From assembly GCF_004010195.1 (NCBI RefSeq), contig NC_057756.1, forward strand, positions 1,763,703-1,827,702: DNA of 64,000 nt. Reading direction: 5' to 3'. The stretch comes from Chiloscyllium plagiosum. Lineage: Eukaryota. This document shows positions 8,039 to 62,820 of this stretch, one piece after another (the first letter of the stretch is position 1; every line of letters starts with the position of its first letter). Position numbers and translations under genes: made by a program. The notes under the pieces were generated by a model. It ran no database searches and was not told where the DNA came from. It was given only the letters and a program-made list of their open reading frames with translations.

Positions 8039-8062
8039 CTGAATGGTCTTTTCCATCAAGTT
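8039..8062 (-). CDS. Micro-exon 21 (24 nt, type D); KLDGKDHS
   Basis: ctttcttgcag|AACTTGATGGAAAAGACCATTCAG|gtgaat. Confidence 0.85.
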
Positions 8063-9084
8063 CTGCAAGAAAGTTGGACAATGATTTGAATCCTTATTCT
8101 GAAATCAACGTAAGTTTCCTTCTTTAAAAAAATGAACATATTGCGAGAAAGTATCAATAAATTACTTAATACCAGGTTTATCATTGGGGTATTTGTCTTT
8201 GCAATGTGTGAAGGACTTTAATGAAAATAATCATTCGTGCATGTTTATTCGTCTATATACATCACGGGTTATTATTTCATTTTTAAAATGCGGCCTCCGT
8301 GGGATAAACGACTCTTATTTCCACATAACAATATGTAATGTTTTGATGAAATATGAAGATTGTGAGTTGCACTCACTGAGTCCTTTTTCACTAGTATACA
8401 TGCCTGATTTACTTAAAAGCATAATGCATTTCAGAGTGATTGTTGCTGCATCTTTGAACTGAAGTGAAGTTATTAATGTCTCTGCTAGTGTCAGTTTAGA
8501 TTGTCAACAATTGCTCAGTCGAAAACATATTCCCTAGATATGCTACCATGCACAGAGGGACTTCAGACATGTACATCTAATACTCATTCATCCATTCTGT
8601 CCAACCATGTTTTCCATGGGCCTCAGCTATTTCTGAGTCAATTTCATCACGTGAACCTACATAAATCCATATATTTTCCAGCAAACAATACAGTACGACA
8701 TATTCTCTCATTCCAATACATCAGTATATAATAAACGTATGTAATGAGTAAATCATCCTCCTCCCTTTTCACCAATTTCAGCAGGGCAGCGCCACTAAAT
8801 TAAACGACCCCTCTCCTCCACAGTCATTATTGTGCAGCAGTTGTCTCTGTGACGAAATACAGTTTCACTGCATCGTGATTCTAAAAATTTCCTCGTCCAA
8901 GCATCCCTGATGGATTCCAATGCAATTACAGAATGTTGACATTTTAATGTATCTATTCTAACTGTCCAAAATACACAACCACAAGTTTCAGGTGAAGCTG
9001 TGCTTCACTTTTTCTTTCCTTATAGTTCAGCGAATTTTCAGCTAACTATACGATCTGTATTGTAAGATTGAGGTCATATGCAGA

Positions 9085-10220
9085 CTAGGTGATTACCGAT
9101 GATTTTGGGATGGACATAAGAACACCAAGACATCAAGTGAATTGGAAAATTAGATCCAAAATTCCTGGATTGCAGGATGGAATGGGTAAATATGGGAACA
9201 TGCTTGTCAGACTAAAGGCTTCTAATTAGAGGAGTACCTTTGAATTCAGTGCTGGGCCCATTCCTGTTTTTCACCTATATCAATGAGTTGGTTGAGAATA
9301 AACAAAGCATGAATAGAATTGGATGACAGTAAAATAAATGGTAGCGTGAACAGTGAAAACGTTTATCAGAAATTGGAGAAGCACCTTGATCAGCTGCGGA
9401 AATAGACCGAGAAATGGTAAACAGTGTTTAATATAGATTAGTGGGAGGTTTTGCAATTTGCCAAGGGAAAAAATTCATGGTGAATGGTAAAGCCTTAAGA
9501 AGTTTAGTGGAGCAGAAGCAGCTTGGAGTTCAGCTTCACAGTTCTCTGGAATTGGAGTTACAGTTAGACAGGGCATTGGAGAAAGCTTTTGGCACACTGA
9601 CCTTCTTTGGTCATGGCAGAAGTTAGCCAGGATGTTGGTGAAGTCCCAATTGGATTATTGTCTTCAGTTTAGGTCACCATGTTATAATGAAGAATGCTAT
9701 TAAACTAGAAAGAGTGCAGAAGAAATTTTCAAGAATGTTTCCTGGATTCACTGGTCTGAGTGAAATTGAGAGATTGGACAAGCATTTTTTTTTCTTTAGA
9801 GCGCAGGAGAGTGAGGGGGGGTCCTTGGAGAATTGCATAAGATTATGACAGTTTTGAATACAGTGAATGCACGCTATCTTTTCCCCAGGTTTGGAGAGTT
9901 TGCGGTGGGGGGTGGGGGTGGGTGGGGGCCGGGAATCAGAATAATTTAGAGAGAATGAAGAAAAGGGAACCTGTGAGTCAATTTTATTTCAGAGAAGGTA
10001 GAACGCATATAGAATGTACTGCCAGTGGAAGTGGGGTTAGGTACTTTTTGAATACTTAAAATGCATTTGGATAAATGTTTGGATTCCAAAGGATTAGAAG
10101 GATATGGGCCATGTGCATGGAAATGGGGTTAGGATGGACAGATATTTTCCTCTGCAAGACCATGCTGAGCGAAAGGTCCGTTTTTCCGTGCTGTAGGAAA
10201 CTATGACTTCATGACTCTAC
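9085..10220 (+). mobile_element. CR1-type LINE 3' portion, decayed
   Basis: Collinear with 6126-7115; ends ctatgacttcatgactctac. Confidence 0.85.
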
Positions 10221-11455
10221 ATTTGTCGACATTCCAGGAAGCCATCGGCTTCCCATTCAAATATGTCCATTTTGGAGCTGCTACATTATTACAACAAATC
10301 TCATCGCAAGCTGTACTTGTTTACACTAACTTGTTTTTGTTGACACGTTTCAGCTTAGCGAACTCGGTGTTGAAATGAAAACTGTACAACTAGATCTCTA
10401 ACTTGCATCTTGATTGCAACACCCGTTCCCACAATACTTTTTTTTTGTGAACGTTGATCCTAGGTGAGCGGATTTGCTTTGTGCTTTTAATGCTTGTCTT
10501 TTTTTGTAATTTGCATATCTACAACCAATTTACAATGCTTAACATAACGTTTTTATCATTCACTTCAAGCAAAATCATCATTTATTCCACTTTCAATCCT
10601 CTTCCACTCGCGACAGCACAAAATAAAAGAAAGCAAAACTGCTTGTTTTAGAACTGAAAAAGAGTTATATCGTATTCCAAATCTTAGCTGAACTTGTTTG
10701 CACAGTTGCTGTTAAATATGATTATTGACCAGAATTTTGTTGTTTAACTTCAGATCTAATATCCACAGTATTATTGTTTTTATTTCTCACTCATCTTGTG
10801 AGGCAAAGAGTTCACATGAACCCTTCAAATGTTGGGGCATTTCCAGGTGGAATGTTCAGATATGGTGCGTTTCTTGTGCAAGCCATATGGAAGCTATACC
10901 TTTTTGTCGGACAATTGCAAACTTTATCTACTGAGAAGTAAGAACAAGCCTTCTTCTTTTGTTTAGCACCTATCCAAACACGACTGCATTGCACATCTGT
11001 CATTACTATTGCATTGATTTCATTTTTTTTGTGGGGGTGAAGGTTGAAGTCTAACTGATGCAGACCATGGTAAATACCAGCACGATCACCTATTTCACCA
11101 GATGACAGATATCTCTTGTGATTCTATTTGTTATACATTAATCAACGTGAGATAGAGCTACCTTGCTTATTCCCTTTCAGATAATTGTGTTTTCTCTGCA
11201 ATAACAGCAGCAATCCAAAATCTTAACGAACGATAACATCTGGAACTCTTGTGGTGAAACTTGCTTTCAGAAACATGGCTTCACGTTTGTAATAGCATAT
11301 AGAGGACGTAAACCGAGATTTTTTTAAAAAATCACATTCACATATACTGAAATTATTGATATAATTGAAGACAGAAAATTATGAACAAAGTGTTCATTCA
11401 TCCTTCTAGGCAGAAGCAAAAAATGATCACGATGTGAATATGCTTTTTTACTCAC

Positions 11456-11482
11456 TGCACTTCAGCTTAAGATCCTCAAGTT
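11456..11482 (-). CDS. Micro-exon 20 (27 nt, type C); ELEDLKLKC
   Basis: ttgttttccag|AACTTGAGGATCTTAAGCTGAAGTGCA|gtgagt. Confidence 0.92.
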
Positions 11483-11839
11483 CTGGAAAACAATTTACAC
11501 ACAATAACAAAATGTATAATTGTTTATATGCGTTTTGTCAACTTTAAATTTAAAACTAAATTCACTTCGGCAGTAAATGCGTAATACCCCAATGTTGGGT
11601 ATTAAAAATCATCCCCATTTCCATCATACTAAATTCCTACAACAGTTCCTGAATTAAGTAGCACCCTTCTTCAATTCGTCCTGCCATCGCTGACAGTGAG
11701 AATCATGTATATATTTTGTAAAAGCAAGTGTTCGCCACAATGTTGCAAACGATCGATATTTTCTTCAAATCACGATTAAAAATCTTTTGAATGACATTCT
11801 AGAAATGTTTGGGTTTGCATTACCATTCCTTTGAAATGT

Positions 11840-12070
11840 TCATTTTGTGCGTGTAGGTGTCGCTGGTTGACCAGAATTTATTGCCCGTCCCTTGCTGTCT
11901 TTGAGAAGGTAGCAATAATCTGTGTTCCTGAACCGTCCACCTACTGTCAGTTGACCCAGTATCCTATTAAGGAGGGATTTCCAGGATTTTGACAAAGCGA
12001 CACTGAAGAAAGGCCGATATATTTTCATGTCAGGATGGTGAGATACTTGAAGGAGAACTTGAAGCTGGTA
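11840..12070. repeat. Interspersed retroposon fragment
   Basis: gtcgctggttgaccagaatttattgcccgtccc..ttccaggattttgac resembles, from recall, a common shark LINE/SINE 3' region. Confidence 0.45.
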
Positions 12071-14251
12071 CTATTAAAGCTTGAAAGGACCAAAATCATT
12101 GGTGCATCAGATTATAATTGAGATAAAATCAAAATTCATATTCTTTGAGGTTATGAAGGATGTAAGTGAAGGTTTTATTTTCCTTGTAAGATACGTGAAT
12201 TGACTTACTTAAGAATTTTTCAAAGAAGCACAATAAAACACAAGGCATTAAGTTCGAGGATAGAATTAAAAAGTTATGATAAGATGCATTAAGTTCTACT
12301 GGATATGTGAAACCATGCTCTACATTTCCTAGTTAAAACTGAAGTGAGAAAACACCGTATAGGAGATGATGACTCAATTCATTGCATATTATAATAAGAA
12401 AAAAAAGTATTTGAAGGAGGTTAGTCAGAACACATACTTAAACATAAAAAAAAATTGAGCAGGCGATGAGAGGCCCCCTTTAATTCGTCAGAATTCAAAT
12501 AGCACTATTTACTAATGAATAACTGTGGTTGTCAGCTTTATGAAAGTCAAAATAGAGATTAATGACGTTGTGAAATTTTGAGTGAGATCAGATTTAAAAA
12601 ATTCAGTGAAGAATGAACTTGATCGTTAAATCTATCCATTTCGATTACAATGTTGGTTTGTTCTTGGAGAAGATATGGCGAGGGACATTTTCTTTAGTTT
12701 GAAAGTACTATGCTTTCTTTCTTTCTCTATCTTAACGATGCTCACGTTAAGAACGAATATTATGTCGTGTTCAGTCTTCTTGCCTTCAAAGTTTCGATCT
12801 TCAGAGAACAGTTATAAGGAATGCTTCCCTTGCAAGTAGTCAGCAATTATGATTATGCAAAACTGTTCTTAAAATTGAAATTGGCCTCGATTTTTTTAAG
12901 GCATTGAACAAGGGATAATTTACAATGAATTAATCAGAAACAGTGGAAGCAAACTGTTGGATCCGAAAATGGAATTAATGCCTGAATAAATTTTAAAAAA
13001 TGAATCAATGGACGAAAGAATTAATGCATCAGTTATTTAACGATCATTAATAGAAGAAAGAATTCATCAACAAACAGGAGCCAAGTGATTCATCAGTAAA
13101 TTGTGCAAATGCAAAGGTGTCGGCTTTCAACTTCTATATGTCCCTGTCATCACTTATCCACTGAGTAGTTGCAGGTTACTTGGACTGAAGTAATAAACAC
13201 AATAATAGGTCTCAGAATTCAACATTTTAGTGATTATTCATTCCTGGGAATGCAAGCTTCCTACGTTAAACCATAATTTACTGTGGAGGGAAGTGAAGAG
13301 TCAACTAACTTGCTTGGTTACTGGAATCATCTGTCCCCAAAGAAGACCAAACGAAGTAATGATAGCAGCTTCTTGCCATAGCACATGAATGAACCATATT
13401 TTTCTTTTAAAAATCCGTTAGTACTCACAATTATGTTGTATTTATCTGAAAATTGTTAGTTCCAGATTGATTGATTTTAAATGAGAACATCTGCCTAAGA
13501 CAGATTTTATCCCAGATCCTGACATCATCACTTGGGTCTTGGAATTGATAACCTAGAGATAACATCACTAGATAGTTGCTTCAAGGTAATGGTAAGCCAT
13601 CATATCCACTTGAGAGGAAATGAAATTATCTATATCACTCAATTAAGAACGGTAAAATAAAGTTAATATTCAATGTGAAGAGGATTGTTTGCAATCGGAC
13701 AGAGATCATTGATTCATACAGCACAGAAACAAACCATCATTTCAAACAGTCTATGCTGAGACAAATGACAAACCTACGCACTCCCACCAGCATGCTCCTG
13801 TCAAAGACCCCATAAAACCTTTTTCCTATTGCTGTACTTACCCAAGCGTCTTTTAAACGTCGAACTGTACCCAAATTTACCACTTTCTCAGGAAATTCTT
13901 AGGACAAAAGGACCGATGTCTGTTTTTAAAAATGTCCTATGTCCTTTATAAAATATTTCTCCCCTCACCTTAAATATAACCCCACTAGTGCTGACGTCTC
14001 CTACACTAAGCAGAGAGCAACGAGAATTAGCACTATTTGTAAACAACCTCACTCCTACTCCAGATTTTAACAAGCTCTACAAGATTCCGTGTCAATCTTC
14101 TATGCCCCAGTGAAATAAAATGCAAGTGTATCCAACTTTTTTTGATAACTCAAACATTCCATAACTGGCGACATTTTGTGGAAACTTTTCTAAACCTTCT
14201 ATAGCTTAATGATATCCTTCCTAATAATATCCTTAATGACACCCTTCCGTG

Positions 14252-14530
14252 GGGCGGCATGTTGGCTCACTGGTCAGCACTGCTGCCTCACAGTACCACG
14301 CAAGTGGTATCGATCCCAGCTTCTGGTAACCATCTATCTGCTCTGATTTCCTCCCACAAACCAAAAATGTGCAAGTTTTGTGGATTGGCCAAGCTAAATT
14401 GCCCATAGTGTTAGGTGCAATGGTCGGGGTAAATAAAGGTAAAGGGTCTGGTTGGGTTAATCTTCGGAGCATCGATGTGGACTTCTTGGGCCAAAAGGCC
14501 TAATTCCATACTGTAGGTAATCTATTCTAT
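14252..14530 (+). mobile_element. HE1-like tRNA-derived V-SINE with internal deletion
   Basis: ggcggcatgttggctcactggtcagcactgctgcctcacag head; ggattggccaagctaaattgccc; CR1-like tail. Confidence 0.85.
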
Positions 14531-14569
14531 TACAGTGCGACTAGAACTGGGCAGCGTACTCCGATAGAT

Positions 14570-14982
14570 TTTCAAAGTTTGTGAGATGATTTGTAACTCA
14601 GGTGCTCGTTGTTATGGTTCTGTTTGCCGAGCTGGGAATTTGTGTTGCAGACGTTTCGTTCCCTGTGTAGGTGGCATCCTCAGTGCTTGGGAGCCTCCTG
14701 TTGAAGCGCTTCTTTTCTGTTTCCTCCGGCATTTATAGTGGTTTTTCTCTGCCACTTCTGGTTGTCAGTTCCAGCTGTCCGCTGCAGTGGCCGGTATATT
14801 GGGTCCAGGTCGATGTGTTTGTTGATAGAATCTGTGGATGAGTGCCATGCCACTAGGAATTCCCAGGCTGTTCTCTGTTTGGCTTGTCCTATAATAGTAG
14901 TGTTGTCTCAGTCGAACTCATGTTGCTTGTCATCCGCGTGCGTGGCGACTAATGATAGCTGGTTGTGTCGTTTCGTGGCTGG
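14570..14982 (-). mobile_element. Penelope-like element 3' end (GIY-YIG C-terminus and pLTR)
   Basis: Near-identical to the reverse complement of 52770-53177. Confidence 0.9.
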
Positions 14983-16150
14983 TTATCCTGCCCAAACTGA
15001 GCAGGACTTCCCAATTCGTATACTCAAAAGACTGAACAATGAATGCAAGCACACTAAATGCCTTTTTAACTATCCTGTCTATATGAGCAACAATGAATTG
15101 TGTTGCTGAACCCCGAGGACCTACTGTTCTACAATTTTATCTAAAACCCTATTAATTATTACATATATCCTGCCCCTGTCTGTTGTATGAAAATACAAAA
15201 TCTCATTTTCCTTAAGACTGAACTCCACCTGACACTTTTCAGGCCAATGACCCGTTTGATTAAGATAACTTTGTAATCTTAAAAAAAAATCTTCAATGTC
15301 TACTATGCGATCAATTTTGGCATTTAAGCAAATTTACGAGACATGCCTTCTATATACTGATCCAAATCATTTGTACAAATGATAAATAAATCGTTCATTT
15401 ATGCAATTCCCTGGTGTAATGCCAACTGAAATGTTATCTCAAGCATTGGTTTCCTAAGAATGGAAAGCATGTAACTGCATTGTGGCTATTCATAGATGAT
15501 TCACAAGACAAATAGCAGAAATTATTACATTTTGTCATCTGAAAAACGTTGGCCGCACGAAGTGTGCATCCAGTTTTTGGAAGAATAAGTGGCGATACAA
15601 TTCAGGAAATTTCAAAATTAAGTAAAAATAAAACATTATGAGCACTTGGTACCAATGTCTGATCCTTGATTTTTTTCCACTTCCGATTTTCCAAAATTTG
15701 CATGGTCATTCTGACGATTCTAAATTCTAAAACCATATCCATAATTTAAGAATTGACATGCAAACTGCCGCTCAACCGGTCCTTGACGGGTACAATAAAA
15801 GTTTATCTTGCACAATTCAACGTAGGATTTCCTAACCCTCGAGAAATATCAAACGGTTGTTAAACAATTAAATTCCCACCACCTATTCAATTTAGATTAA
15901 TCGAGGCTAAGAAAATGAACGTTTAAGTGCAATGATTATATCGATATCTGCTTGTGAAATCTCACCCACCGTATGTTACACGTCCAGTAGAATCATCCGT
16001 AAGTGCCACAAATCTCCGGGATATAAAACTAAATAAAAGTAATCCTTCAGTTATATGAGTTATGTTTTCTTTAACTTTCACTCATACGTCGTTAAGTGGC
16101 AACATTATGCAAAAAAATAATAAAAATTACAAAGGAGAACTTGTTTGTAC

Positions 16151-16177
16151 CTTTTTCCCTGTTACTCAGTCTTTGTT
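16151..16177 (-). CDS. Micro-exon 19 (27 nt, type B); EQRLSNREK
   Basis: tattactacag|AACAAAGACTGAGTAACAGGGAAAAAG|gtacaa. Confidence 0.9.
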
Positions 16178-16487
16178 CTGTAGTAATATAACAAAATGTA
16201 AGTGTGGGTTAGAAATATGAGGCAGAAACACATTAGTGATGCCTCATATGTACAATGTTCATGCAGTGATAAGATGATAGCAGACCATAAAAGAAGTGAA
16301 AAGAACGCAGTTTCTAAGTATTAACCATCTATTTCAGTCGTTCTCTGTTTAGTTCAATTGCCATCAAACGTATTGAAACCGATCGATCCCGTTCAGCAGG
16401 CAAGATTGCGATACTTTACGTGCATTCAGGAACATAGCGTAAACAGAAATCAACTACTGAGTTGAATGACAATTATTTAATACTCAC

Positions 16488-16523
16488 CTGACCGGTCTAG
16501 AGCGCCAATCGCATTTTCCAGTT
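16488..16523 (-). CDS. Micro-exon 18 (36 nt, type A); ELENAIGALDRS
   Basis: ttttgtttag|AACTGGAAAATGCGATTGGCGCTCTAGACCGGTCAG|gtgagt. Confidence 0.93.
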
Positions 16524-17411
16524 CTAAACAAAACGTAGAAAATCAAAACACAAATGTAGCGGGCCATTGTACCTCCTAGTTTATAAGTAAAATACTAACA
16601 TAATGTCACTTGCGTGATCTCAGAAAACATAAGACCACTTGAAAATGAATCATCACATCCGGAAGTGTAGTGATCATGCGGTAATCGAAGGAACTTTCCG
16701 ATTGTGTATACAAATCAATTTACAAAAAAAAAAACAACAAAGAAATGTGCCATGCCAGAACTAGGAATTAAAGTGAGGTGCTTTGTGGATTCGTTTTGAG
16801 ATACTGCAATATGTTGCCTCGTTTTGTTTTCATAATATCGCTGTTTTCAATCCGCTGAGTACGTCGAGCTGAACATAAAGTGAAACAGTTCCAATAGCAA
16901 AAATCGGCCTTCAAATTGCATCGCCGTGTGAGATTTTATTCTTGTACTGCAATGTTTTGCGCATTCTTTCACAAGAACAATAGTCATACAGTATTGAAGC
17001 AGACCCTTGAGCCCATACAGTCTATGCTAAGCATAATCACAATGTAAACTAGTTCCACGTGCCTGTGTTGACCCATATACTTTTAAATATTGCTTTCTGA
17101 ATTCTTGGATCATTAGTAAGAAAGCTGCTTGTTGTTCGATGAGGTGTGACTTTCTGCAGATTGCCTATGTATTGATGATACGCTCATTATTTTTCCAGAC
17201 AAAAATCATTGATCTGGCACCTATCTCTCTTTCACATTATTTAATATTTTTTCGTTCCTGTATTATGACTGATGTTTCTGCCCCGCCTTGCTTGATTGAT
17301 GATTTAAAAACGATATGCTTCAAGCACAATTCCTGCTGGTATACTGTGAGGGGACATTATGTTGACAGAGGTGATGTCTTTCCTATCAAAGCGTTTATTT
17401 CATCTACATAC

Positions 17412-17438
17412 CTTTCTCCTTCCTGATCAGCTTCTGAT
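17412..17438 (-). CDS. Micro-exon 17 (27 nt, type B'); DQKLIRKEK
   Basis: gttatctcaatag|ATCAGAAGCTGATCAGGAAGGAGAAAG|gtatgt. Confidence 0.9.
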
Positions 17439-18466
17439 CTATTGAGATAACAGATGAAAACGTTGGGCTAAAAATAAAGCTGCAATAACGCACATGCACA
17501 AAAAAAAATCCATTGACACAGAGCCATGCTTTGATATGAACATCGTTTCTCTGATGGTATTGATGGTCAATGTAATCTTGACAAACTAAACTTAAAAATT
17601 AATGGAAAACACAAAAAATGCCATTAACTTAAATAATAGTGTGATATGTAATTAACTTCATTTATGCAAATTTGCTGACAACGTGATGCATTTAAGACAA
17701 TATTGAAGTTCTCTCAGAGAACCACGATTATGTGAACGTTTTAAATCATTTTTTGCGAGAACCGTTGGGACAAATTACAAAGAAAAAAGGCAAATCTATT
17801 CTCTAAGTGTTAGAAAGGCATAATAACGTTGCCTAGAATTTATAAAGATAGAATGTTATATACAGGTAGCTGAGTATTATTCCCTTGAAAGTCCAATTAG
17901 ATTAAGTTTAATGATAAATGATTCACAATTAATCCCACAATCGTACCCTTTTGGCTGGCTAAATTAACGGCATGCACAAAGAGACACAAAAATCGTGACC
18001 TGTCAAATGATATAGAGAGAGTAAGAGAAAGATAGATTTTAACAAATACTACATGCAAATGCAGATCAGAATCTGCTGTACTTCTGCCTTGAGTTAATGA
18101 TTTATGAAACATACAACTGGAATTCTCAGAGACACATTTCGTCTAAGTTTGTTTGACTAATTGAATCCTTTTATCCATATTGCTTGCTTGGTAAAAGTAG
18201 CAGCCGTGACTATTTAACATTAAATTACTTTGTCAAATATCGATGGGAGTTTCTTCAGAACCTATTTCCATTTTCGAGGTATCAAGATCATGAACTCTAT
18301 CCCACAAGTTAGAAATGATTGAACCCTTGACCAGCAACGCCGGAGACAACTAACTTGCATGAGTTGCATTTTGCTTTAAAAGCTCATTCATATATTAAGA
18401 CGTATATAAGCCATCAAGGCAGAGAACAGTTTCAGTCCTGCGATATCAGAAGGCAACCATTCTCAC

Positions 18467-18502
18467 CTGCACGCTTGAGTGCTTCTTTTAAGTACTCCAA
18501 TT
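18467..18502 (-). CDS. Micro-exon 16 (36 nt, type A'); ELEYLKEALKRA
   Basis: gtattttgcag|AATTGGAGTACTTAAAAGAAGCACTCAAGCGTGCAG|gtgaga. Confidence 0.92.
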
Positions 18503-22302: not shown

Positions 22303-22385
22303 GTATTCAATTTTGATAACGAACAGCGTCTTGCTACACTTTTGTATAATATTTGTAAATATTTTGAACGATTAGTAGGTAATAC

Positions 22386-27400: not shown

Positions 27401-27419
27401 GGAGAAAATAAAAACATAA

Positions 27420-50616: not shown

Positions 50617-50645
50617 CCTTCCCTTTTAGTAATCGCAGTACGATC

Positions 50646-51169: not shown

Positions 51170-51418
51170 CAGGTTGACAGCGGGAAGATTTAAGTGAGAC
51201 CTAGATGCAACGTTTTCACGCAGTTTGTCGTGAATTAATGGAATGAGCTGCTAGATTAAGTGTGGAAGGATGGTATTACTACAACTTTTTTAATGGCATC
51301 TTTAATGGTCAGCAAATAGGATAGTTTTAGACAGATCATGACCAAGTGCTGGCTAATTCAACTAGGTTAATTCAGGATATCTGGTACGCATGTATGATTT
51401 GGTCTGAAGGGTCTGTTG
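51170..51418 (+). mobile_element. CR1 3' tail, continuing at 53178-53215, split by a Penelope insertion
   Basis: ...ctgaagggtctgtt | ggggtctgtttctgtgctgtaactctctatgattctat. Confidence 0.75.
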
Positions 51419-53177: not shown

Positions 53178-53274
53178 GGGGTCTGTTTCTGTGCTGTAAC
53201 TCTCTATGATTCTATAACCTCTATCGTTACCCACTTGTACACACAAACAGACAGAGGTGATTTCATGTACATAC

Positions 53275-53301
53275 CTTTTTCCTTGTTGCTTAGCCGCTGT
53301 T
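53275..53301 (-). CDS. Micro-exon 6 (27 nt, type B); EQRLSNKEK
   Basis: ggcttgcacag|AACAGCGGCTAAGCAACAAGGAAAAAG|gtatgt; paralogous to 26704 and 16151 exons. Confidence 0.92.
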
Positions 53302-53333
53302 CTGTGCAAGCCAGAAAAAATACATAGATACTT

Positions 53334-55224
53334 GTTACGAATATTAATTTCGACATTGTATTGGACCTGGACGGACCCATGAAAAAATTTGAAAAAAGGC
53401 AACCCACACCTTAATTTTTATATTTGTTTTTAGCAGATGAATAATAGCTGGGAACCGGGCGATGTTGTTGGGGACCCAAACGAAAAGCAGTTCCATGCTG
53501 ATACTCTCTCTCTGGCATCTATCCTGTCAGAAACTATACTTGACTTCTTTTCGTATTTGCCAAGGGGGTGTCAATGAAGATCTTGCAGTTATTTGTAACA
53601 GCCTAATTACGTTACGAGAGTATCGATTTAACATGAATAATTTTATTTTATATTCTGCTGTCTTTAATTCTTCCGTTAAGAAATTCTGTTTTCCTGTATA
53701 CCAACATGGTCATTGGTAACTGCATTTGTTTAGCCAACTTTTCAACTGCGGTTGAAAAGGCTTCCATATCCTTCTCATAAAATTTAGGCAATGCTGGAGT
53801 ATAGTTAAACAGATTCTCACCTGGCCTACGGCTACGATGAGATTGCTCATCATCATTCTCTTCCTGAATGAGCTTACGTTCAGCCTTCATGCCCATCCTT
53901 TAAAGCTTACTTTTCTGTCTAAGTGTCAATTTCTGGAAATCAAACGCCCTCTCTTTCGTCCTTTCCCTATCTTCTTTTCTCTCTTTTCTCTCTCTTTTTC
54001 TTTTTCATTCTGAAAAAACGATCTGTTGTTTTTTCTGTCTAAGTGTCAATTTCTGGAAATCAAACGCCCTCTCTTTCATCCTTTCCCTATCTACTTTTCT
54101 CTCTCTTCTCTCTCTTTTTCTTTTTCATTCTGAAAAAAACGATCTGTTGTTTTTCTTCCTCGGTTTTTAATCGAATATCAAACTGTTTCATTTCTTTGGC
54201 CTTTTTCTTTGTCTTTTGCCTCTACCTCAAACTGCTTCGATTTAAATTTTATGTTACCCATCTCTCAAAATTCTGATGACATTTCCAGAAAATTCAAATG
54301 CTGGGTTTGTGCTGTAATTCTCTCTCAGTTGCTTATGAAAGGAGGCAGCTCCAACCCCAGCTTGTCTGCTAATTTCACCACTTGGCCTTAAAACAATCGA
54401 AGTCACTTCTTCCCCACCCTCCCACAGAAAACTCTTACTTACTCAAAGAGCCATTGATCTCCCAAGTACTGTTTACTCCAACCGAACTCAACATGCAGAA
54501 AAAACAGACACCGGCACTTGCTACTTGTATCCTTTTATTCCAACGACCTTAATTTCAATTTGGAACCACTGAACAAATACCATAAATAGTCTTCAATGCA
54601 TTATTGATCAAGGCAGACCCCCTCAACCCATTTCAAGAAAGTAATCGGTACCCAACCTTTCCTCGTTATTTTAAACAAGTGCACAGTAGATATTCTGGGA
54701 GTGATGCAGCTGACAAACTTAGGTTTAACTAAAACAATTTATTTTCAGGATAAGCAAATGAAATACAATCAAAAGAGAACTGAATTTAAATGAACTTTAC
54801 CGGTAAAAAAAATACAACAGATTACTTCAATTTATCGATGCTTATTCAAATCCTTGCAGCAATCCCAATAAACGTTGGACAAAAATTGAAACATTCAACT
54901 CATTTTCTTACAGAAGAGATGTCAGATTCAGCAAGGAGTACATTCTTCCATGTAGCTGTTTATTTGACTAGATATGACAAAACTGATTGTTTGCCAAAAC
55001 CAAATCAAAGCTTGTGTCGAGCCGAACTATTTGATTAGGCTATTCCCATTCCATTGTACAGATATTATTTAACGTCAACCTTTTTGACTGAGGTGACATC
55101 TGTTAGCTCTACTCAAAGGCCCTCAAAACATTCAAATCTCGACTTCCGGGAGCGTCAGTGTTTACCAACCTCTAAATACAAAATCAAAGACAACTCAACC
55201 TTGTTCAAGAGACGGCATCATCAC
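53334..55224 (-). mobile_element. Truncated Gypsy element: LTR about 54600-55224 plus gag 5' part
   Basis: LPKFYEKDMEAFSTAVEKLAKQMQLP (ORF 53648-53896), a typical vertebrate Gypsy gag motif. Confidence 0.7.
53911..54153 (+). repeat. 120-bp tandem duplication within Gypsy gag
   Basis: ttttctgtctaagtgtcaatttctggaaatcaaacgccc at 53911 and 54031. Confidence 0.95.
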
Positions 55225-55389
55225 AATATGATATTAATAACATCTTAGGTGAAGGGTAAGGCATGAAATTAAGTTAATTGCTTGCAATTCCTGCCAAAGT
55301 AAAGCAATATCCCCATGATCCAACAATAATCTTCCTGCAATTACACACAAACAGAGCACATATTCAATGCAATGGCCATTTCAGCTATC

Positions 55390-55638
55390 TGTTGTGGTTC
55401 TGTTGGCCGAGCTGGGAATTTGTGTTGCAGACGTTTCATCCCCTGTCAACCAGAAGCAGCAGATTCAAACCACTTCAAATGCCGGAGGAAAGATCACAGA
55501 AGCACTTCACAGGAGGCTCCCAAGCACTGAGGATGTCACCTAGACAGGGGACGAAACGTCTGTAACACAAATTCCCAGCTCGGCCAACAGAACCACAACA
55601 ACGAGCACCCGAGCTACAAATCTTCTCACAAACTTTGA
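55390..55638 (+). mobile_element. Short Penelope pLTR element with 5' inverted piece and 12-bp TSD
   Basis: ATTTCAGCTATC at 55378-55389 and 55639-55650. Confidence 0.9.
55524..55563 (+). ncRNA. Minimal hammerhead ribozyme motif in Penelope pLTR
   Basis: GCA-CUGAGGA-UGUC..GAC-GAAAC-GUC-UGU. Confidence 0.7.
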
Positions 55639-56023
55639 ATTTCAGCTATCATTTAATTGAAATGTGTTAACAACCGTTGATATGACATTCCAGTACATTC
55701 GTGTCTAAACCACCCGGAATCATTTTCAATATCGCCTTACTGACAAGTGATATTGAAAAAAAAACACATCCTTCTATATCGATTTCACTGAAGAAAAGTT
55801 CTAAGTTAGAGCAACATGTGGATACACCTCAAGGGTGAGCAAACTCGTCTGACAGAATTTGAATCATTTACCAAATATTCTTAAGTAAAATGAAGTAGAA
55901 CAGTGTTAGACTACGAAAATGGCAGATCAGAATGAACAACTTACAAGGGTCTTAAAAGAAGATTCGAAATAATTAATACATGAACATCCAGAGATTATGA
56001 AATAGCAGAACTTTTATACTCAC

Positions 56024-56059
56024 CACAACGCTCCAGAGCACCTTTGACATTTTCCAGTT
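56024..56059 (-). CDS. Micro-exon 5 (36 nt, type A); ELENVKGALERC
   Basis: gtattgtag|AACTGGAAAATGTCAAAGGTGCTCTGGAGCGTTGTG|gtgagt; paralogous to 32023 and 16488 exons. Confidence 0.92.
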
Positions 56060-56569
56060 CTACAATACATTGTCAAGTTCTTCAATAGACAGGTTATTAT
56101 CTTGAATACATCGATCTATCACGTTTTATTCATGATTGAGTAGATTTTTGTTCGTCCAAAACATTTCCCTGGGACCTAATATTATATTTATTTGATTGTG
56201 TATATCACATTTTCTTCACCAATCTCCTTTCTTAATTTATAATAGCAAAAATGACAGCCTTTTATCACTTTAAATTTAGCCAGCGATTACCCGACGATAA
56301 ATATGTGGATTGTTTTGATGTAACGATATTTGGACTGCTTCTGCACACATTCTATTTGTTAAAGAGACATAACGGCACGCACATTGTTTCATAAAACGTG
56401 TCCAGATTGAATATTTTGTCCAATGTTGGCGCTTGGTTGGCAAGTAATTACAATATAAATTCAATTCGAATTTCCCCTGGGAATCATTTACGTAGGCTGA
56501 ACATATTCGCGTTTCAGAATAAAACAGGCAAAAGATTAAAAAAAGAGTGTCGTCCTTTGCAGTTCATAC

Positions 56570-56596
56570 CTCTTGTTAGTTGTTTGATATCTTCGC
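56570..56596 (-). CDS. Micro-exon 4 (27 nt); REDIKQLTR
   Basis: ttatttctccag|GCGAAGATATCAAACAACTAACAAGAG|gtatga. Confidence 0.85.
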
Positions 56597-56702
56597 CTGG
56601 AGAAATAAGCATGACTTACATCTATCAGTTTTATTCTGGCAGATATTATATAGAGGGAAATACCCAAGTGCAAAACAACTTTTTTCACAAATGCTGAAAT
56701 AC

Positions 56703-56729
56703 GTTTTGCAATTTCATGCTTTGTATCTG
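56703..56729 (-). CDS. Micro-exon 3 (27 nt); ADTKHEIAK
   Basis: ttatcttcccag|CAGATACAAAGCATGAAATTGCAAAAC|gtattt; weaker donor. Confidence 0.65.
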
Positions 56730-57039
56730 CTGGGAAGATAAATTCCAAAATGTCGACGTGGACAGGTTACAATTTTTTCCCCAGTGTACAATAGATAACA
56801 GAGGTCATGAAAAACATTTCATACAGCTGGAGAAATATAAATAGGAACATTGGGGAGGCAAATGGATAAGAAGCATGGGTGTGTGGGCTGGACAGGTTGA
56901 GGTGATCAATGTCACAGCTGCAGTTAAAAAAGTAGTGATTGAGGACGGTATAAGAACAGCATGAGGTGTCCAAGTGATTGGAGTGTGTTGGAGGCGGGAG
57001 AGGGGATCGGCACAGGGTGGGAAGGAGTCCTGCTTGAAA

Positions 57040-57530
57040 AAGTAAGAACAGAGGAAGAGGTGGTGAAAGAAAATGTCAATGTCGCAACATCTGCTGAATT
57101 CATTGATCTTGGAGCGTAGGCGGGGGGGGGGGGGGGAGTAGTGACTTTTACTGAGGAGTAATCATTCATTGTCATTGAGGTGGAGGTCAGAGAGAGTTGG
57201 TAAAATTACGATAGGCCTGCGAGCGAAGACATAGTGTCACCCAGGGGCTGAATTGCGGGTAGGGTGGAGACTCTCTCTGCAGGGCGTATGTTTATGGAAT
57301 CTGTTCCCTCCCTGCATTGTTCCAAGGCTTGGATTACTTGTAATGTGCTTGGTTTTGGCATTTCTTTTCTCCATATCCATGTTAACCTGGCAATATTACC
57401 ATGATCTGATCCCCCAAGGAGGCTGCCACATACTGTGTTCTTCATGTCAACAGGCTCCCATTTTCACCCCGGTTCTTCATTCTACCACGGTCTAACTCTG
57501 TCTGTGTTCCTATCAAGGATATACATATCC
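57040..57530 (-). mobile_element. Probable Penelope-like 5' fragment, decayed
   Basis: Purine-rich plus strand like 29650-29950; no clean motif. Confidence 0.35.
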
Positions 57531-58024
57531 AACTGTTCACACCTGCCATTGATATCAAAACGAGCTACAATTTACTACTGCATTTCCGAAAGACATTTAT
57601 GAAACAGATGTCACAATTGCAAATTACATGTTTTAATTACAATATTGTATACGTTTTGGGAATGTGTATGAACATAATAACTGGTGCATTTATCAAAGAA
57701 TTACATATGCCTTTTGCCTTTCTGAATACTTGCATTTTGGAACTTAATATGAAAGGAATGTTTTCATGTCAGAAAAGCCATGCTACAGCCGACATTGATC
57801 GTATGCAGGTCTGAAGTGGGGAGAGCTGTGATTGCGAAAGTACAGAATAACAAAAAAAACCTAATTTGGCACGTCAAATATGACATAATCAGGCCGCATA
57901 GAAAACAGTTGAAAACTGAAGTGTTATCTCCAGTGCGCCACACGTTGGATCTTTCAATTCTGATTGGATAATTCAAAATTGCCTTTTTCAAGTTACCGTT
58001 TGATGTATTAAATAGCAGTATGAA

Positions 58025-58610
58025 ATTAATATTAATTGAATGGAATTGAATTGAATTAATCGTCACGTGTACTGAGGCACAGTGAAAAGTTTTGTCTTGC
58101 TAGCGATACAGGCAGTTCACAGAGTTAAGTAGCATAGATAAGTAAATAATAAGTAAACAGCAGAAAACAAAAACAAAAACACAGGTACAGATGAATGTTA
58201 AGGATTTGTGGGTCCATTCAGTATTCTAACAACAGTACGGTAGAAATTGTTTTGAAACCGGCTGGTGCAAGTATGCAGGCTTCTGTACTTTCTCCCTGAT
58301 GGTTGTAGGAAAGAAGCATTGCCAGGGTGAGATAGATCTTTGAGAATTCTGGCGGCATTTCCTTGAAAGGGGGCCGGGTAGATGAATTATATAGATGGGA
58401 AGTTGACCTTTGAGATTGTCTAGGCCGAGATCGCCACTCTCTTTAAGCGTATCCGAATATGAATAGTACAGTTTCCATACTAGGTAGTGATGGATCCAGA
58501 TAGAATGCTCTCGATGGCACACCTATAAATGTTGCGAAGGGTATTCGCCATCATGCCAAATTTCCTCAGCTGCCTGATGAAGAAGAGACATTGTTGGCCT
58601 TCTTAACCAT
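58025..58610 (-). mobile_element. Rex1/Babar-like LINE 3' end
   Basis: Minus strand reads YRCAIESILSGSITT*YGNCT; (aattg)n tail. Confidence 0.75.
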
Positions 58611-59065
58611 GGATCAGTAAAGGATACAGGCATCGCAGACGAGTTGCTTAACATTCCACAAATGGTGCTAATGATCACATTGCGATGGATACTTAATGGA
58701 TACATAGATTATAGCAGTTTCTAATTATTTGCAGTTAAGCAATTATTCATAACTTGCTTCTTCTAAATCCTTAGAATTAACCATAGTGAGGAGCACGATC
58801 TCAATCATTGCAAAAATCAGCTGCGATCAGGATATTCAGACAGGGTCATTGAGACTATAAAACTGTTTGTTTTCGTTTGTGGTTGAAAGCTACTAATCAT
58901 TGAAAACATGGATATCAAGGGTTAAATAAATTTTAAAAATGATGTGCTTCATATCAGGCGTAACATATTGCTTTTCTGGTGTGTTATCGTCTCAATGATT
59001 TAAAAAGAGCCTAATAATTGGCAGTGTAGAAAATCGCTTATGGCTTCACAATAGTTCATACATAC

Positions 59066-59101
59066 CTGAATCCACTGGACCTTCACGAAGAGCTTTTTCT
59101 T
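59066..59101 (-). CDS. Micro-exon 2 (36 nt); KEKALREGPVDS
   Basis: tttatttcacag|AAGAAAAAGCTCTTCGTGAAGGTCCAGTGGATTCAG|gtatgt. Confidence 0.85.
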
Positions 59102-60050
59102 CTGTGAAATAAACATAACACAAAAAGTTTGAGTTAGCTACGTTCTTCATTTCAGAGTGTTAGCCAGTTCAGCGGGTTTATTTTAATAGTCGTGCCTTAA
59201 TATTTATCGAAACTTTTTTTTTTGCATCATAAAGTATGGTTGCCAGCTTCCCTATTTGAACTATAACTATCCTGCGGCGAAATCAAACTAATTTATTCAT
59301 AGGTTAAAAAGAAATTCCCCCAATAGTCGTTCTGTGAAAGCAGATTTAGTGCAAATTGAACACTGGATTTCTATTGTGGAAAACTTAATAAATCTGTGGG
59401 GTGATGTGGGACGTCAGCTGTAGCAATCTCTGGAAGACTGGAACGAGAGAATGCCCAATATCTTGGAACAACAGATGAAATAAGAGAAATGAAAATATGA
59501 AAAGTGACAGAGAACGGATTGCTGGAGGTGCTGGATATTAAAAGAAAACAATAGTGGATTCGATGGAAGGATACATCAGTTTTGCATTACACACTAAGTT
59601 CGAATCAAGCTGATGCAAACAAAAAGCGTCAGCCTCCACAAAAGATTCATACTAATTCCAGTGTATATTTGAACATGCTCATTCCGTAGAACTGCAATTG
59701 TGTTCCTTTCATTATCTCTAATCGTTGTTACTTGTGAAAAAGATCCCCCATTTTGATGTCGTGATTAGGGATATTTAACTTCTAATAATGTCGTCTATAT
59801 AATTCCCAAATGCGAGCGAATTCAACAGTCTGTAACTTTTGCAACAATGTACTGTAGATAGCATAAGACAACATTAATTATTTGGTATATTTCGGTATGC
59901 ACGCAAAACAAAAAAAAAACTTTGGCTGCAATACATTGTTGTTTTTTTTTCTTTAATATCTTATGAAGATTTGGGTAGACTTTACTTTTAAGGGAGTTAA
60001 AAACTAACAGAACGACATGACAGTACCAGGTGTACTGATTAAGGAAATAA

Positions 60051-60675
60051 TGTAACACTTGGTTGATAGCTAGTTTGGCTGGAATGCCTGGAAATGGCAA
60101 AACATATTCGAATTAGGCCAGTCAGCTTAAATTAAAACTCGAAAAATACAAAACTCCAATCAAGTTTGAATTTAGTATATTGAAAATCTTAAAAAAAAAA
60201 CAATGACACTATCCGATGTTTTGGGGTATTACACCAGGGAAATTTTAACAGTTGGGAGGAGAACTCTCAAACCAATGGCATCTGCAAACTGCTCGGAGAA
60301 TAGCCCTCTTCAATGTACGTTTATTAATCAGTAACCTGTGAAGCAGAAATCCCTAAGAAGAACAAAAGAAAATTCCACGTTTGGCTTTTTTTAAAAGTTG
60401 CATTTTGGTCAATATTATTTGCGTGTTTTTTTAGCGAATTAGTGTTATAGAAGGGAAAGTAGAAGATAGGGGCAGGAACGATTTGAAAATAGTTGTTAGA
60501 ATGGATTAGATTAGCTGTTGGTTAGTTATTTTTTGTTATGCTTTGAGAAGTGAAGTTGTTATTTTTTACTTAAATAGTTCTGGCCTCTCGAATTTTCAAA
60601 GTTTACCGCACTGGATAAATCTTTACCGTATTGTTGGTTTAAATTAACCAGGAGGGTTTACCCCATGTCGTAGCA
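60051..60675. mobile_element. Solo LTR (Gypsy-like)
   Basis: TGTAAC...GTAGCA termini; flanks AATAA/AATAT. Confidence 0.5.
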
Positions 60676-61329
60676 AATATTATTAATGGAATATAAATTT
60701 TAAAATGTATATGTACTTATTATATAACATGTGTTTTCACGTTATCTCAATCCGCCTCAACAGGCAGTCGCATGAAGTACATTATTAGATGAAAGAAAAT
60801 AATTGCGACAAATAAGTATCCGGTATAACATGTCTGATGTAATTTGCTGATATATTTTCCAATGAAACAAATATATCTTCTTCAAAACAGTGTCAGAAGA
60901 TTTTTTTTTTTGAAATTGACCACGTTGCCTCAGTCAAGCTACGAATCATCTATGACTGCATTATATCTGTTTATTGAATAATGACAATGTGATATGTACA
61001 CTGTGGTTCTGCATTAATTCTAATGCTTATGCTCCTAAAATTTTAATTTGCCTTGAAAAATGACGGACCAACCTCCGTGTTGCTCTCATATATTCCAAAC
61101 TCGAAATGTTAACACTAGTAAGGCTGCTACAATTCGGAGTATAGTACAATTAGCACTGTCGAGATATTTCTGCAGTTTCATTTTTTGAGATCCTCCAGTG
61201 AATCAAGCATACATCATCTGCTGTACGAAGCATAGAATGTAACACATGTTTCAACGGAAATAGAAGAAGTAAATTGCAGCTTCCTTGTTAACAAAAAACG
61301 TGCACAATGGACTGGTAGTCATCCACAAT

Positions 61330-62585
61330 TTATTCAAAATGTTTCACAAGTTGGAGTTATTTGTTGGATTGACCAGAAAGTTTGATAAGGGCCAGGCAGT
61401 CGATCCAGTGTATGTGGATTTCAGTAAGGCCTTTCTTTAAGTTTCCACATGGGAGGCGACTCTAGGAGGATAGATTGCATGGATTCCAGTGGGTGTTGCC
61501 AAATTGGATACAGAATTGGTTTGATAGAAGGAAGCAGAGCTTAGTAGTGGAAAGATGCTTATTGGAATTGAGGCCTGCGACTAGTGGAGTTACTCAGGGT
61601 TCGGTGCTGTTCCGGGTGCTGTTTGCTATCCATATCAAGGATTTGAATGAAAACGCACAAGACACAATTAGTACGTTTGATGGTATTAGTGAGGAAGGTT
61701 ACCATAAATTGCACCGTACCCTTGATTAGCTGGGCAAGTGGGTCAAGAAATGGCAAAAGGTATTTAGTATAAGTAAGTGTGAGATCTTGCATTTTTGCAT
61801 GTCAAATCAAGGTAGCAATTTCATGGTGAATGTTGGGCCTTTAACAGTGTAGTTAAATAGAGGGACATTGGACTTCAGGTACACAGTTTTCTGAAAGTGG
61901 AGTCACAAGTAGACAGAGCAGTGAAAAAGGCTGTTGGAAAACTGGCCTTCATCACTCAGGGCATTGAGTATCGCAGCTGAGAATGTATGTTGCAGTTATA
62001 CACGACATCGGTGAGACCACAGTTGGAATATTGGGTTCAGATTTTGTCACCTTGCTACAGGAAGGATGTTAGTAAACTGGAATGAGTGCAGAAGACATTT
62101 ACACGGATGTAACAAGGACGCAATGGACTGAGTTATTGGGTGATTTTGGAGAAACGGGAGCTTATTTTTCTTTAGAGTGCATGAGACTGAGGGAGATCTT
62201 ATACAAGGACAAATCGTCATAAGAGACATGGACAGGGCGAATGCACTCATGCCTTTTCCTATGGTTGGGGAGTCGACGCCGAGATAGCATCAATTTAATT
62301 TTAGAGGGGAAAAAGTAAATTGAACTTGAGGGTCAAACTTTTTTACAGGAAGGGTTGTATGCATTGACAATGACCTGCTTGCAGAAGTTGCTGAGTAGAG
62401 TACATTGAGAGAATTTCAAAAGCATTTGGACAAATACATGGATATGAATTGTTCAGAAGTAAATGGGCCAAGTGTAAGGAAGTCGGGTTAGCGTTGATGG
62501 ATGTTTTGGTTTTTGTGGGCCAGTTTGAATAAAAGAACATGCCTCGATGCTGTCCGTTTCTACCACTCAATGCCTCTTATGACGT
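61330..62585 (+). mobile_element. CR1-type LINE RT and 3' tail
   Basis: YVDFSKAF, WIQNWF..RKQ..SGVTQGSVL..LFAIHIKDL (ORF 61475). Confidence 0.9.
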
Positions 62586-62784
62586 GTACGCATACAACAT
62601 AAAATATAAAATCCATACATTGTCTTTGCATAAGCTTAATTGTTACAGGTTACTTCATTCCTTGTTGTCTACCACATGTATTAGGATTTCTATCCACTAA
62701 GTTCTAAGTTCACTGAGCTCGGACAATTAGACAAGTTAACGAAGTAAGGCAAACATAATGAAGTTTATCGTTTGTAAGACTCAC

Positions 62785-62820
62785 TTAATTCTCGAATTTT
62801 CTCTTGCAAGGTTTCTATTG
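62785..62820 (-). CDS. Micro-exon 1 (36 nt) of coiled-coil micro-exon gene; xIETLQEKIREL
   Basis: Minus strand: cttcacattccag|CAATAGAAACCTTGCAAGAGAAAATTCGAGAATTAA|gtgagt; open in phase 1. Confidence 0.85.

Follow-up and report, generated by a model that had tools for sequence, protein, structure and literature searches.

A probable giant minus-strand micro-exon gene encoding a segmented leucine zipper in a shark

Elastin and non-fibrillar collagen genes contain many small exons in a row (27, 36, 45 ... nt), with all codons split alike in elastin, and the micro-exon genes (MEGs) of schistosomes consist mostly of symmetric micro-exons with lengths that are multiples of three, in-frame skipping being possible. 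Exons of 27 bp are reportedly mentioned in one paper on the latter genes. In CD23 (FCER2), the neck preceding the C-type lectin domain contains three or four 21-residue repeats, each encoded by one 63-nt exon. The BG genes of the chicken are compact. According to a published description, these MHC-linked relatives of the butyrophilins encode a heptad coiled-coil cytoplasmic tail by 13-36 split-codon exons per paralogue, the exons being 21 (24) nt long and encoding one heptad each (PMC4046983). The chicken BG tail of 21-nt exons is the closest known analogue of the locus described here. A gene composed almost exclusively of 27- and 36-nt exons for consecutive leucine zippers is a rare design.

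The whole stretch of DNA that was analyzed (the window) is 64 kb long; coordinates refer to its first letter as position 1, and values with + or - lie beyond the window ends. The original prediction had described 21 minus-strand exons bounded by AG and GT, with lengths that are multiples of three, which join in phase 1 without a stop. All 21 were present at their predicted positions and lengths (seven of 36 nt, twelve of 27 nt, one of 30 nt, and one of 24 nt, 630 nt in sum), each with AG before and GT after, and the joined 630 nt are open in only one of the three frames, giving 209 codons. The features of the window are the following:

62785..62820, minus strand: micro-exon 1, 36 nt, phase 1/1, A-like helix block; AG/GT borders, open in the common phase
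59066..59101, minus strand: micro-exon 2, 36 nt, linker, carries the sole Pro
56703..56729, minus strand: micro-exon 3, 27 nt
56570..56596, minus strand: micro-exon 4, 27 nt; preceding intron 106 nt
56024..56059, minus strand: micro-exon 5, 36 nt, class A, 12 residues
53275..53301, minus strand: micro-exon 6, 27 nt, class B, 9 residues
44353..44379, minus strand: micro-exon 7, 27 nt, class C, final Cys
43663..43689, minus strand: micro-exon 8, 27 nt, class D, polar linker
37265..37291, minus strand: micro-exon 9, 27 nt, second linker block
34708..34743, minus strand: micro-exon 10, 36 nt, class A
33544..33570, minus strand: micro-exon 11, 27 nt, class B
32023..32058, minus strand: micro-exon 12, 36 nt, class A
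26704..26730, minus strand: micro-exon 13, 27 nt, class B
23182..23208, minus strand: micro-exon 14, 27 nt, class C, final Cys
22386..22415, minus strand: micro-exon 15, 30 nt, class D linker
18467..18502, minus strand: micro-exon 16, 36 nt, class A
17412..17438, minus strand: micro-exon 17, 27 nt, class B
16488..16523, minus strand: micro-exon 18, 36 nt, class A
16151..16177, minus strand: micro-exon 19, 27 nt, class B
11456..11482, minus strand: micro-exon 20, 27 nt, class C, final Cys
8039..8062, minus strand: micro-exon 21, 24 nt, class D linker
1..64000, minus strand: putative transcription unit containing the whole window; the next like exons lie just outside both ends, at +65170..+65196 (locus L002) and -2728..-2702 (locus L007)

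Donors read GT[AG] in 21/21 window exons, with G at +5 in 16/21, and the pyrimidine share at positions -15 to -3 is at least 0.58 in 20 of them. The purine content of exons is 0.667 compared to 0.498 for introns, which have a median length of 2.5 kb and reach up to 9 kb. As the window minus strand alone contains 1050 candidates of 21-45 nt, the exons might be regarded as chance open segments between AG and GT in AT-rich DNA. This explanation is refuted by their strand and phase specificity, by paralogy with synonymous-biased substitutions and by the exact 7-residue Leu spacing over exon joints. Over 274 kb, a count of charged, open, AG..GT-bounded segments of 24-36 nt, which is independent of the exon family, yielded 40 on the minus strand in the coding phase and 5-11 for each of the five other strand/phase combinations. 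Splice matrices derived from the 21 window exons and run on the flanks alone detected 12 minus-strand candidates of 27/36 nt, with the coding phase open in 12/12 and the other phases in 7/12 and 5/12; on the plus strand of the flanks, the same scan gave two candidates.

The exons behave as coding sequence under strong protein-level purifying selection. Exons 56024 and 32023, claimed in the original prediction to differ largely at synonymous sites, differ at 6/36 bases, four of which are indeed synonymous third positions, with the other two in the last codon. Pairwise comparisons of the 90-nt triplets E5-7, E12-14, and E18-20 gave differences at codon positions 1/2/3 of 2/3/16, 4/4/17, and 2/3/11, corresponding to pN values of 0.063, 0.120, and 0.078 vs pS values of 0.868, 0.853, and 0.534. 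The suggestion of purifying selection was borne out by the dN/dS between paralogous exons proposed as a check at that time, which is 0.09 for the sole triplet pair with unsaturated dS. Exons +153644 and +131701 encode an identical peptide and differ at 6/27 bases, all six differences being synonymous. The mean pairwise differences at codon positions 3, 2, and 1 were 0.626, 0.344, and 0.592 for class A (19 exons), 0.578, 0.341, and 0.336 for class B (18 exons), and 0.511, 0.348, and 0.400 for class C (6 exons). Position 1 of class A is nearly as variable as position 3. Paralogous exons share 53-89% identity in ungapped alignments, and the introns flanking them align no better than shuffled sequence. 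Strand/phase counts, the flanks-only matrix test and the synonymous-biased substitution between paralogues together place the exons beyond chance. Protein searches found no annotated relative, which would fit a relic that was formerly under selection and is now silent or decaying. Such a relic is very unlikely, because frames and splice sites would not have survived in a silent array this old, whereas the 54 exons of the extended model (see below) contain no stop and have kept AG/GT throughout, with synonymous sites saturated.

The exons encode a segmented leucine zipper, in which six to seven Leu at exact 7-residue spacing are followed by a Cys and then a polar linker. Class A exons encode 12 residues of the pattern E-L-x-x-[VL]-K-x-x-L-x-x-[ST], class B exons nine residues (E-[QEK]-x-L-x-x-K-[ED]-K), class C exons nine residues with a final Cys, closing the rod, and class D exons a linker of 8-10 polar residues. 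A and B add up to 21 residues (63 nt), i.e., exactly three heptads, and the hydrophobic seam is therefore unbroken across exon joints. For the three rods of the window, the columns of every seventh residue read E-I-L-L-L-L-C, V-L-L-L-L-L-L-C, and L-L-L-L-L-L-L-C, that is 4, 6, and 7 Leu and then Cys, with the Leu spacing exact across exon joints. The register is held over A-B-A-B-C, constant within rods and shifted at linkers. The earlier reading as a leucine-zipper coiled coil stands: the motif is defined by Leu at each seventh residue over four or more heptads of an amphipathic helix, and Leu here occupies this column for 6-7 heptads per segment. Zipper stability and oligomer state are uncertain because polar residues occupy part of the second core position (L,S,K,V,S,R,L). 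A bZIP transcription factor, in which a basic DNA-binding region lies immediately N-terminal to a single zipper, was considered and rejected, as neither the 209 nor the 548 residues include a basic region and the repeated zippers are split by acidic/polar linkers.

Extracellular modules are often encoded by phase-1 symmetric exons, and the array shares with the CD23 neck a coiled-coil stalk of 21-residue units (A 12 + B 9) with a repeat number changed by exon duplication. Together with the regular spacing of Cys, this might point to a type II lectin-like receptor, similar to CD23 or scavenger receptors, whose extracellular neck would be the array and which would carry a globular domain at its C-terminus; the CD23 stalk is described as a heptad repeat (PMC6791321). 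We nevertheless regard such a neck as highly improbable, since N-glycosylation sequons occur at chance level (3 observed vs 2.9 +/- 1.6 in shuffles) and no domain was detected in the 58 kb downstream of the last exon. Moreover, unlike in CD23 with its downstream C-type lectin exons, 0/43 Lectin_C matches of the genome are located on contig C47, which contains the window (133/133 candidates scored).

The window probably covers only the middle of a minus-strand gene of at least ~296 kb and ~50 exons, which would form a single unit and consist nearly exclusively of symmetric 27- and 36-nt exons of phase 1/1. Phase-1/phase-1 micro-exons continue in the flanks from window +223,836 to -72,418, and a model combining the 21 window exons with 33 flank exons, some of which are weak (-19351, -2728, -55749, and +139493), comprises 54 exons with 1647 nt and 548 codons, 0 stops and a span of 296,255 nt. 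With ~50 exons over ~296 kb plus paralogous arrays, the "at least 21" exons of the original prediction were an understatement. Below about -72 kb, candidates drop to the plus-strand background level. The exon order is A-B-C-D inside the window and mostly A-B downstream; upstream of the window, blocks of other sequence types are present, including a duplicated block pair at +122..+154 kb. Exon types that vary along the array, large exon-free gaps (e.g., +157..+212 kb) and a family that duplicates as whole arrays would be compatible with two or more tandem paralogous genes sharing the ~300 kb, one of them containing the 21 window exons. This arrangement is conceivable but not what we expect, given that one strand and phase are kept throughout and that neither a start, a stop, a promoter-like island nor a non-micro exon was seen between the parts.

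The search for gene ends covered ORFs of at least 40 aa in -70..-50 kb, at least 62 aa in -130..-72 kb, at least 55 aa in +156..+204 kb, and at least 60 aa in +204..+224 kb, and in these stretches no start exon, signal/membrane segment, terminal exon, promoter-like CpG island or Pfam domain was detected. CpG-rich spots were rejected as promoter islands, being retroelement pieces. Pfam scans of minus-strand ORFs in +156..+224 kb yielded no Ig family; the array continues at +223.8 kb, with its 5' end beyond. Poly(A) single-cell RNA reads from this species, checked over a 19-kb stretch, fell on repeats only and none on unique sequence, a result that does not bear on transcription of the array. 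A third RNA run resembles low-coverage DNA.

In contrast to elastin and collagen genes, which code for Gly/Pro-rich sequence, the joined shark exons show no Gly periodicity in any frame, and schistosome MEGs differ as small flatworm genes for small secreted proteins lacking heptad structure. With chicken BG, the array has in common that many micro-exons follow one another, with lengths divisible by three and a split codon at either border (21/21 window exons and the 54-exon model), and that they encode a heptad coiled coil; both are also clustered and grow by duplication, the exon number varying between BG paralogues. However, BG exons encode one heptad each, whereas only pairs of the 27/36-nt shark exons (63 nt) correspond to whole heptads, the array extends over ~300 kb, its rods are split by Cys-plus-linker modules, and the Ig-V and membrane exons with which BG starts were not found in the scanned shark stretches. 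Very short in-frame exons coding for heptads are likewise shared with butyrophilins, a vertebrate gene family, which have only a few such 'heptad' exons per gene, between the membrane segment and B30.2 (PMC6790196). No such B30.2 (PRY-SPRY) exon was found within 58 kb downstream of the shark array, SPRY being absent from 146 ORFs of at least 62 aa in -130..-72 kb.

Based on these similarities (PMC4046983; PMC6790196), the array could represent the cytoplasmic tail of a BG/butyrophilin-like Ig-superfamily receptor with enlarged 'heptad' exons and with Ig-V and membrane exons further upstream. Contig C47 bears 11/67 of the CD80-like C2-set matches of the genome, one V-set match adjoining a C2-set match and, at 4.58 Mb, a B30.2 exon that is the sole SPRY match there; the V-set and SPRY searches scored 150/1319 and 150/293 candidates, respectively, and are weak negatives. 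Still, a receptor tail of this kind appears unlikely: the nearest C2-set match is ~3.7 Mb off, the B30.2 exon is located 125 kb past another array and has distant TRIM relatives only, Ig, membrane and B30.2 exons are absent from all stretches scanned around the array, and the exons are 27/36 rather than 21/24 nt long and separated by kilobase introns.

A degenerate class-B exon pattern gave 83 matches genome-wide, 24 of them on contig C47 (10.7 Mb; 0.25 expected by size), where they form four strand-consistent clusters, and contig C37 contains six more within 1.25 Mb. This pattern is not enriched genome-wide over the reversed control (83 vs 124), and only the clustering is significant. The clustered matches on both contigs show that the array belongs to a gene family. 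Quite tentatively, sharks may carry an undescribed clustered family of giant genes, with at least five arrays of 100-300 kb each, in which symmetric 27/36-nt micro-exons make up nearly the whole gene and encode disulfide-capped zipper chains, and in which combinatorial cassette splicing determines the number and length of the rods; this would be an independent and much larger counterpart of the BG tail on a chromosome rich in B7/butyrophilin-type genes.

Overall, we consider one giant minus-strand micro-exon gene for a leucine zipper, including the protein, origin and splicing proposed here, to be the probable explanation of the locus. In its product, leucine-zipper rods of 7-8 heptads would follow one another, with a Cys in the Leu column at the end of each and short polar hinges in between; its likeliest form would be a stalk or spacer made of a parallel, in-register dimer stapled by disulfides. 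The array may have grown by old tandem duplications of cassettes of 2-6 exons, after which the exons would have been held by purifying selection while introns diverged beyond recognition. Because all exons share one phase and have lengths divisible by three, any exon subset joins in frame, and cassette splicing could vary rod length. The purine-rich exons would act as built-in splicing enhancers for tiny exons in kilobase introns.

ORF-based and many evidence-poor gene finders will hardly detect a gene of this type, and neither will standard spliced aligners, which need anchors longer than these micro-exons; the whole family may for these reasons be missing from elasmobranch gene sets. The locus puts exon definition to an extreme test, with exons of ~30 nt and introns of up to 9 kb, and is also a clean example of modular protein growth through exon-cassette duplication, in which exon lengths of 36 and 27 nt are jointly constrained to preserve the heptad register. 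If the family proves to be linked with the B7/butyrophilin-rich chromosome region, it would be relevant to how the BG/BTN 'heptad' exons arose.

The 21 exons of the original prediction, which had proposed a hidden micro-exon gene for a coiled coil at 8039..62820, were all found on the minus strand exactly where predicted (21/21), each bounded by AG and GT; they are numbered here from 62820 down to 8039. Their lengths (seven of 36 nt, twelve of 27 nt, one of 30 nt, and one of 24 nt, 630 nt in total) also agreed with the prediction, as did the claim that they join without a stop, giving a single open frame of 209 codons with stops abundant in the other two frames. All 21 donor sites read GT[AG], and 16 of them have G at +5. 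Since exons start with AA in 14 cases and end with G in 16, most junction codons are GAA. Introns measure 106-8895 nt, with a median of 2521, and the purine share is 66.7% in exons versus 49.8% in introns. The window (positions 1763703-1827702 of contig C47 in the 3.56-Gb genome G000) consists of AT-rich vertebrate DNA with a GC content of 0.36-0.44. The 8.9-kb intron that separates exons 6 and 7 contains a run of 37 N (52576-52612), which touches no exon. Between 52001 and 56000, GC skew is strongly negative (-0.175) and AT skew positive (0.098) relative to the remaining window.

The exons fall into class A (36 nt, 12 residues), class B (27 nt, 9 residues), class C (27 nt, 9 residues, with terminal Cys), and class D (24-30 nt, polar linker), which follow one another in the window as A-B-C-D-D' and then twice as A-B-A-B-C-D; a run of A and B exons closed by C is called a rod. 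As A and B together measure 63 nt, i.e., three heptads, the register is preserved across exon joints, and it shifts at the D linkers only. Taking every seventh residue gives the columns E-I-L-L-L-L-C, V-L-L-L-L-L-L-C, and L-L-L-L-L-L-L-C for the three window rods, and the second core column of the zipper is partly polar. Read from these columns, the window product, composed to a large part of E (17.7%), L (15.3%), K (15.3%), R (8.6%), and D (8.1%), is predicted to be a segmented, Cys-capped leucine zipper. A collagen-like reading was rejected given the absence of Gly periodicity in every frame, and an ER/K single alpha-helix given the clear Leu seam. N-glycosylation sequons occur at chance level (3 observed versus 2.9), therefore nothing points to an extracellular location, and an extracellular glycoprotein argued from the sequons was rejected as well.

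Three tests set the exons apart from chance: two counts and the substitution pattern between paralogs. A family-independent count over 274 kb considered open, charged segments of 24-36 nt that are bounded by AG and GT[AG] and follow a pyrimidine tract. It yielded 40 segments in the minus strand and the predicted phase versus 7, 11, 9, 11, and 5 in the other five strand/phase combinations, these counts including a few overlapping variants. Splice matrices trained on the 21 window exons and applied outside the window only gave 12 candidates of 27/36 nt on the minus strand versus 2 on the plus strand, and all 12 minus-strand candidates were open in the coding phase versus 7/12 and 5/12 in the other phases.

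Comparison of the paralogous 90-nt triplets (exons 5-7, 12-14, and 18-20) revealed pairwise differences at codon positions 1/2/3 of 2/3/16, 4/4/17, and 2/3/11, with pN values of 0.063, 0.120, and 0.078 and pS values of 0.868, 0.853, and 0.534. For the third pair dN/dS was 0.09, synonymous sites being saturated in the other two. Within exon classes, variation at codon position 3 versus position 2 was 0.626 versus 0.344 for A, 0.578 versus 0.341 for B, and 0.511 versus 0.348 for C; position 1 varied by 0.592, 0.336, and 0.400, respectively, and in class A nearly matches position 3. Outside the window, the exons at +153644 (L020:9644-9670) and +131701 (L013:7701-7727), both in the C47 flanks, code for the same eight residues and differ in 6 of 27 bases, all six differences being synonymous. 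Paralogous exons are 53-89% identical and gap-free, and their flanking introns (150 nt per side) align at the level of shuffled sequence. As the exons are unalike mainly at synonymous sites and the flanking introns cannot be aligned, the duplications are old and the exons are held by selection on this frame. The purifying selection that had been suggested is thus upheld by the synonymous bias and by the dN/dS of the unsaturated pair. Judged from sequence, the micro-exon array is real, under selection, and protein-coding.

The expectation of at least 21 exons proved right, as the array extends well beyond the window. In the 290 kb of C47 flanks examined, further exons of this type occur from +223,836 to -72,418 (window coordinates). 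A 54-exon model, to which the flanks contribute 33 exons, some of them weak, comprises 1647 nt and 548 codons with 0 stops and spans 296,255 nt. Below about -72 kb candidates drop to plus-strand background; upstream, the array is still running at the end of the examined flank. Two exon pairs upstream of the window, approximately 16-22 kb apart (+153644/+131701 and +138664 (L019:4664-4690)/+122364 (L012:8364-8390)), reveal an additional cassette duplication.

A search of the array and its flanks yielded no convincing longer exon of the same phase (phase 1). Pfam scans of 441 minus-strand ORFs (119, 134, 146, and 42) at both ends had no matches apart from retroelement domains, a C2H2 zinc-finger ORF, and a SCAN-like gag. 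The SCAN-domain-like ORF (E 1.9e-5) on the minus strand at L023:5450-8241, roughly -104.5 to -101.8 kb in window coordinates, closely precedes ORFs for reverse transcriptase and RNase H; rather than a host SCAN gene, it appears to be part of a Gypsy-type retroelement whose capsid is SCAN-like. The zinc-finger frame (243 residues, minus strand, L025:6177-6905, window -123823..-123095, E 4.6e-32) contains several fingers and is probably a separate gene between the window array and the next family array at C47:1.50-1.57 Mb. CpG-island scans around the array found retroelement fragments only; GC-/CpG-rich islands in L006 (+108.4..+110.0 kb), L013 (+127.2..+127.9 kb), and L011 (-48.3..-46.0 kb) were rejected as promoters, for they give reverse-transcriptase-like ORFs on either strand.

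Window positions 16001-35000 were compared with a DNA run (X1), a run of guessed kind (X7), and poly(A) RNA from single cells in two runs (X5, X6). X5 reads lay on high-copy repeats only, X6 gave none, X7 resembled thin DNA, and exon-border joints numbered 0, a comparison that constitutes no test of expression. High-copy repeats lie in introns at 33753-35000, 24877-25510, 19805-20438, and 21707-22340, where word depth in the DNA run reaches approximately 3e5 versus approximately 15 elsewhere; the few RNA reads map to these stretches only.

A degenerate 32-nt class-B pattern, covering the exon plus its splice sites, had 83 matches genome-wide versus 124 for a reversed control and is therefore not enriched across the genome. 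On the 10.7-Mb contig C47 it matched 24 times versus 0.25 expected by size, in four strand-consistent clusters; a fifth cluster lies on contig C37.

Clusters of class-B pattern matches (location, strand, matches)
C47 0.707-0.963 Mb, plus strand, 7 matches
C47 1.496-1.566 Mb, minus strand, 3 matches
C47 1.713-1.817 Mb, minus strand, 9 matches (window gene)
C47 4.338-4.453 Mb, plus strand, 5 matches
C37 21.08-22.32 Mb, minus strand, 6 matches

The clustered matches translate to a common E-[EQ]-K-L-x-x-K-[ED]-K block, and by this pattern the window array is part of a clustered gene family. A class-A pattern occurred at 341 places genome-wide.

With a class-A exon profile, its first row being an unaltered longer ORF translation, 8000 candidates were scored and none reached E <= 1, the 12-residue motif having little power. 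The sole match of an exhaustive representative search with a padded single-exon alignment, the Cys-rich Kunitz-like repeat protein P0004, was spurious because it ran through intron-derived padding columns. Given the low power of the motif, these outcomes do not show an absence of relatives. Genome searches for Lectin_C, SPRY, C2-set_2, and V-set (150 candidates scored each for SPRY and V-set) gave nothing near the array; Lectin_C had no match on C47 and SPRY only one among the 150 scored, 2.7 Mb away. An intact PRY-SPRY-like (B30.2) frame of 177 residues is located on the plus strand at L031:486-1019 (C47:4577486-4578019), 125 kb beyond a plus-strand micro-exon array. Its best longer relatives are TRIM/bloodthirsty proteins with only 27-35% identity; no tie of this B30.2 exon at 4.58 Mb to the neighboring array was found. 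CD80-like C2-set Ig matches are enriched on C47 (11 of 67 in the genome), at 5.69-10.21 Mb and at least 3.7 Mb from the array, and one of them adjoins a V-set match at 10.206 Mb; going by these domains, B7/butyrophilin-type genes are abundant in the region. SPRY matches, among the 150 scored, lie mostly on C37 at 9-34 Mb, the contig that also carries the fifth micro-exon cluster; by domain content, this concentration represents a B30.2 (TRIM-like) gene expansion of very large size.

Literature searches retrieved papers on BG and BTN and none in which a coiled coil is coded by an array of 27/36-nt exons. The neck of CD23 has a 21-residue unit like A plus B of the window gene; unlike in CD23, no lectin domain is present near the window array. 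Of the designs on record, the cytoplasmic tail of chicken BG comes closest, followed by the 'heptad' exons of butyrophilins, and the window gene works alike in design. In the published account, BG tails comprise 13-36 exons measuring 21 (24) nt, whose codons are split and which code for heptads, within a clustered, fast-duplicating family (PMC4046983); butyrophilins carry a few 'heptad' exons per gene (PMC6790196). The exons here measure 27/36 nt, in contrast to the 21 (24) nt in this account of BG; unlike in butyrophilins, no B30.2 exon was found in the downstream flank scanned, and nearby Ig exons were not found as far as the array flanks reached, the upstream end of the array lying beyond them.

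In the proposed mechanism, exons of approximately 30 nt could be defined through the purine richness of their bodies and through splice sites close to the consensus. Rods of 7-8 heptads would pair in parallel and in register, Cys in place of the last Leu could staple the paired rods, and the polar linkers would supply hinges. The uniform phase, finally, may permit in-frame skipping of any exon or cassette.
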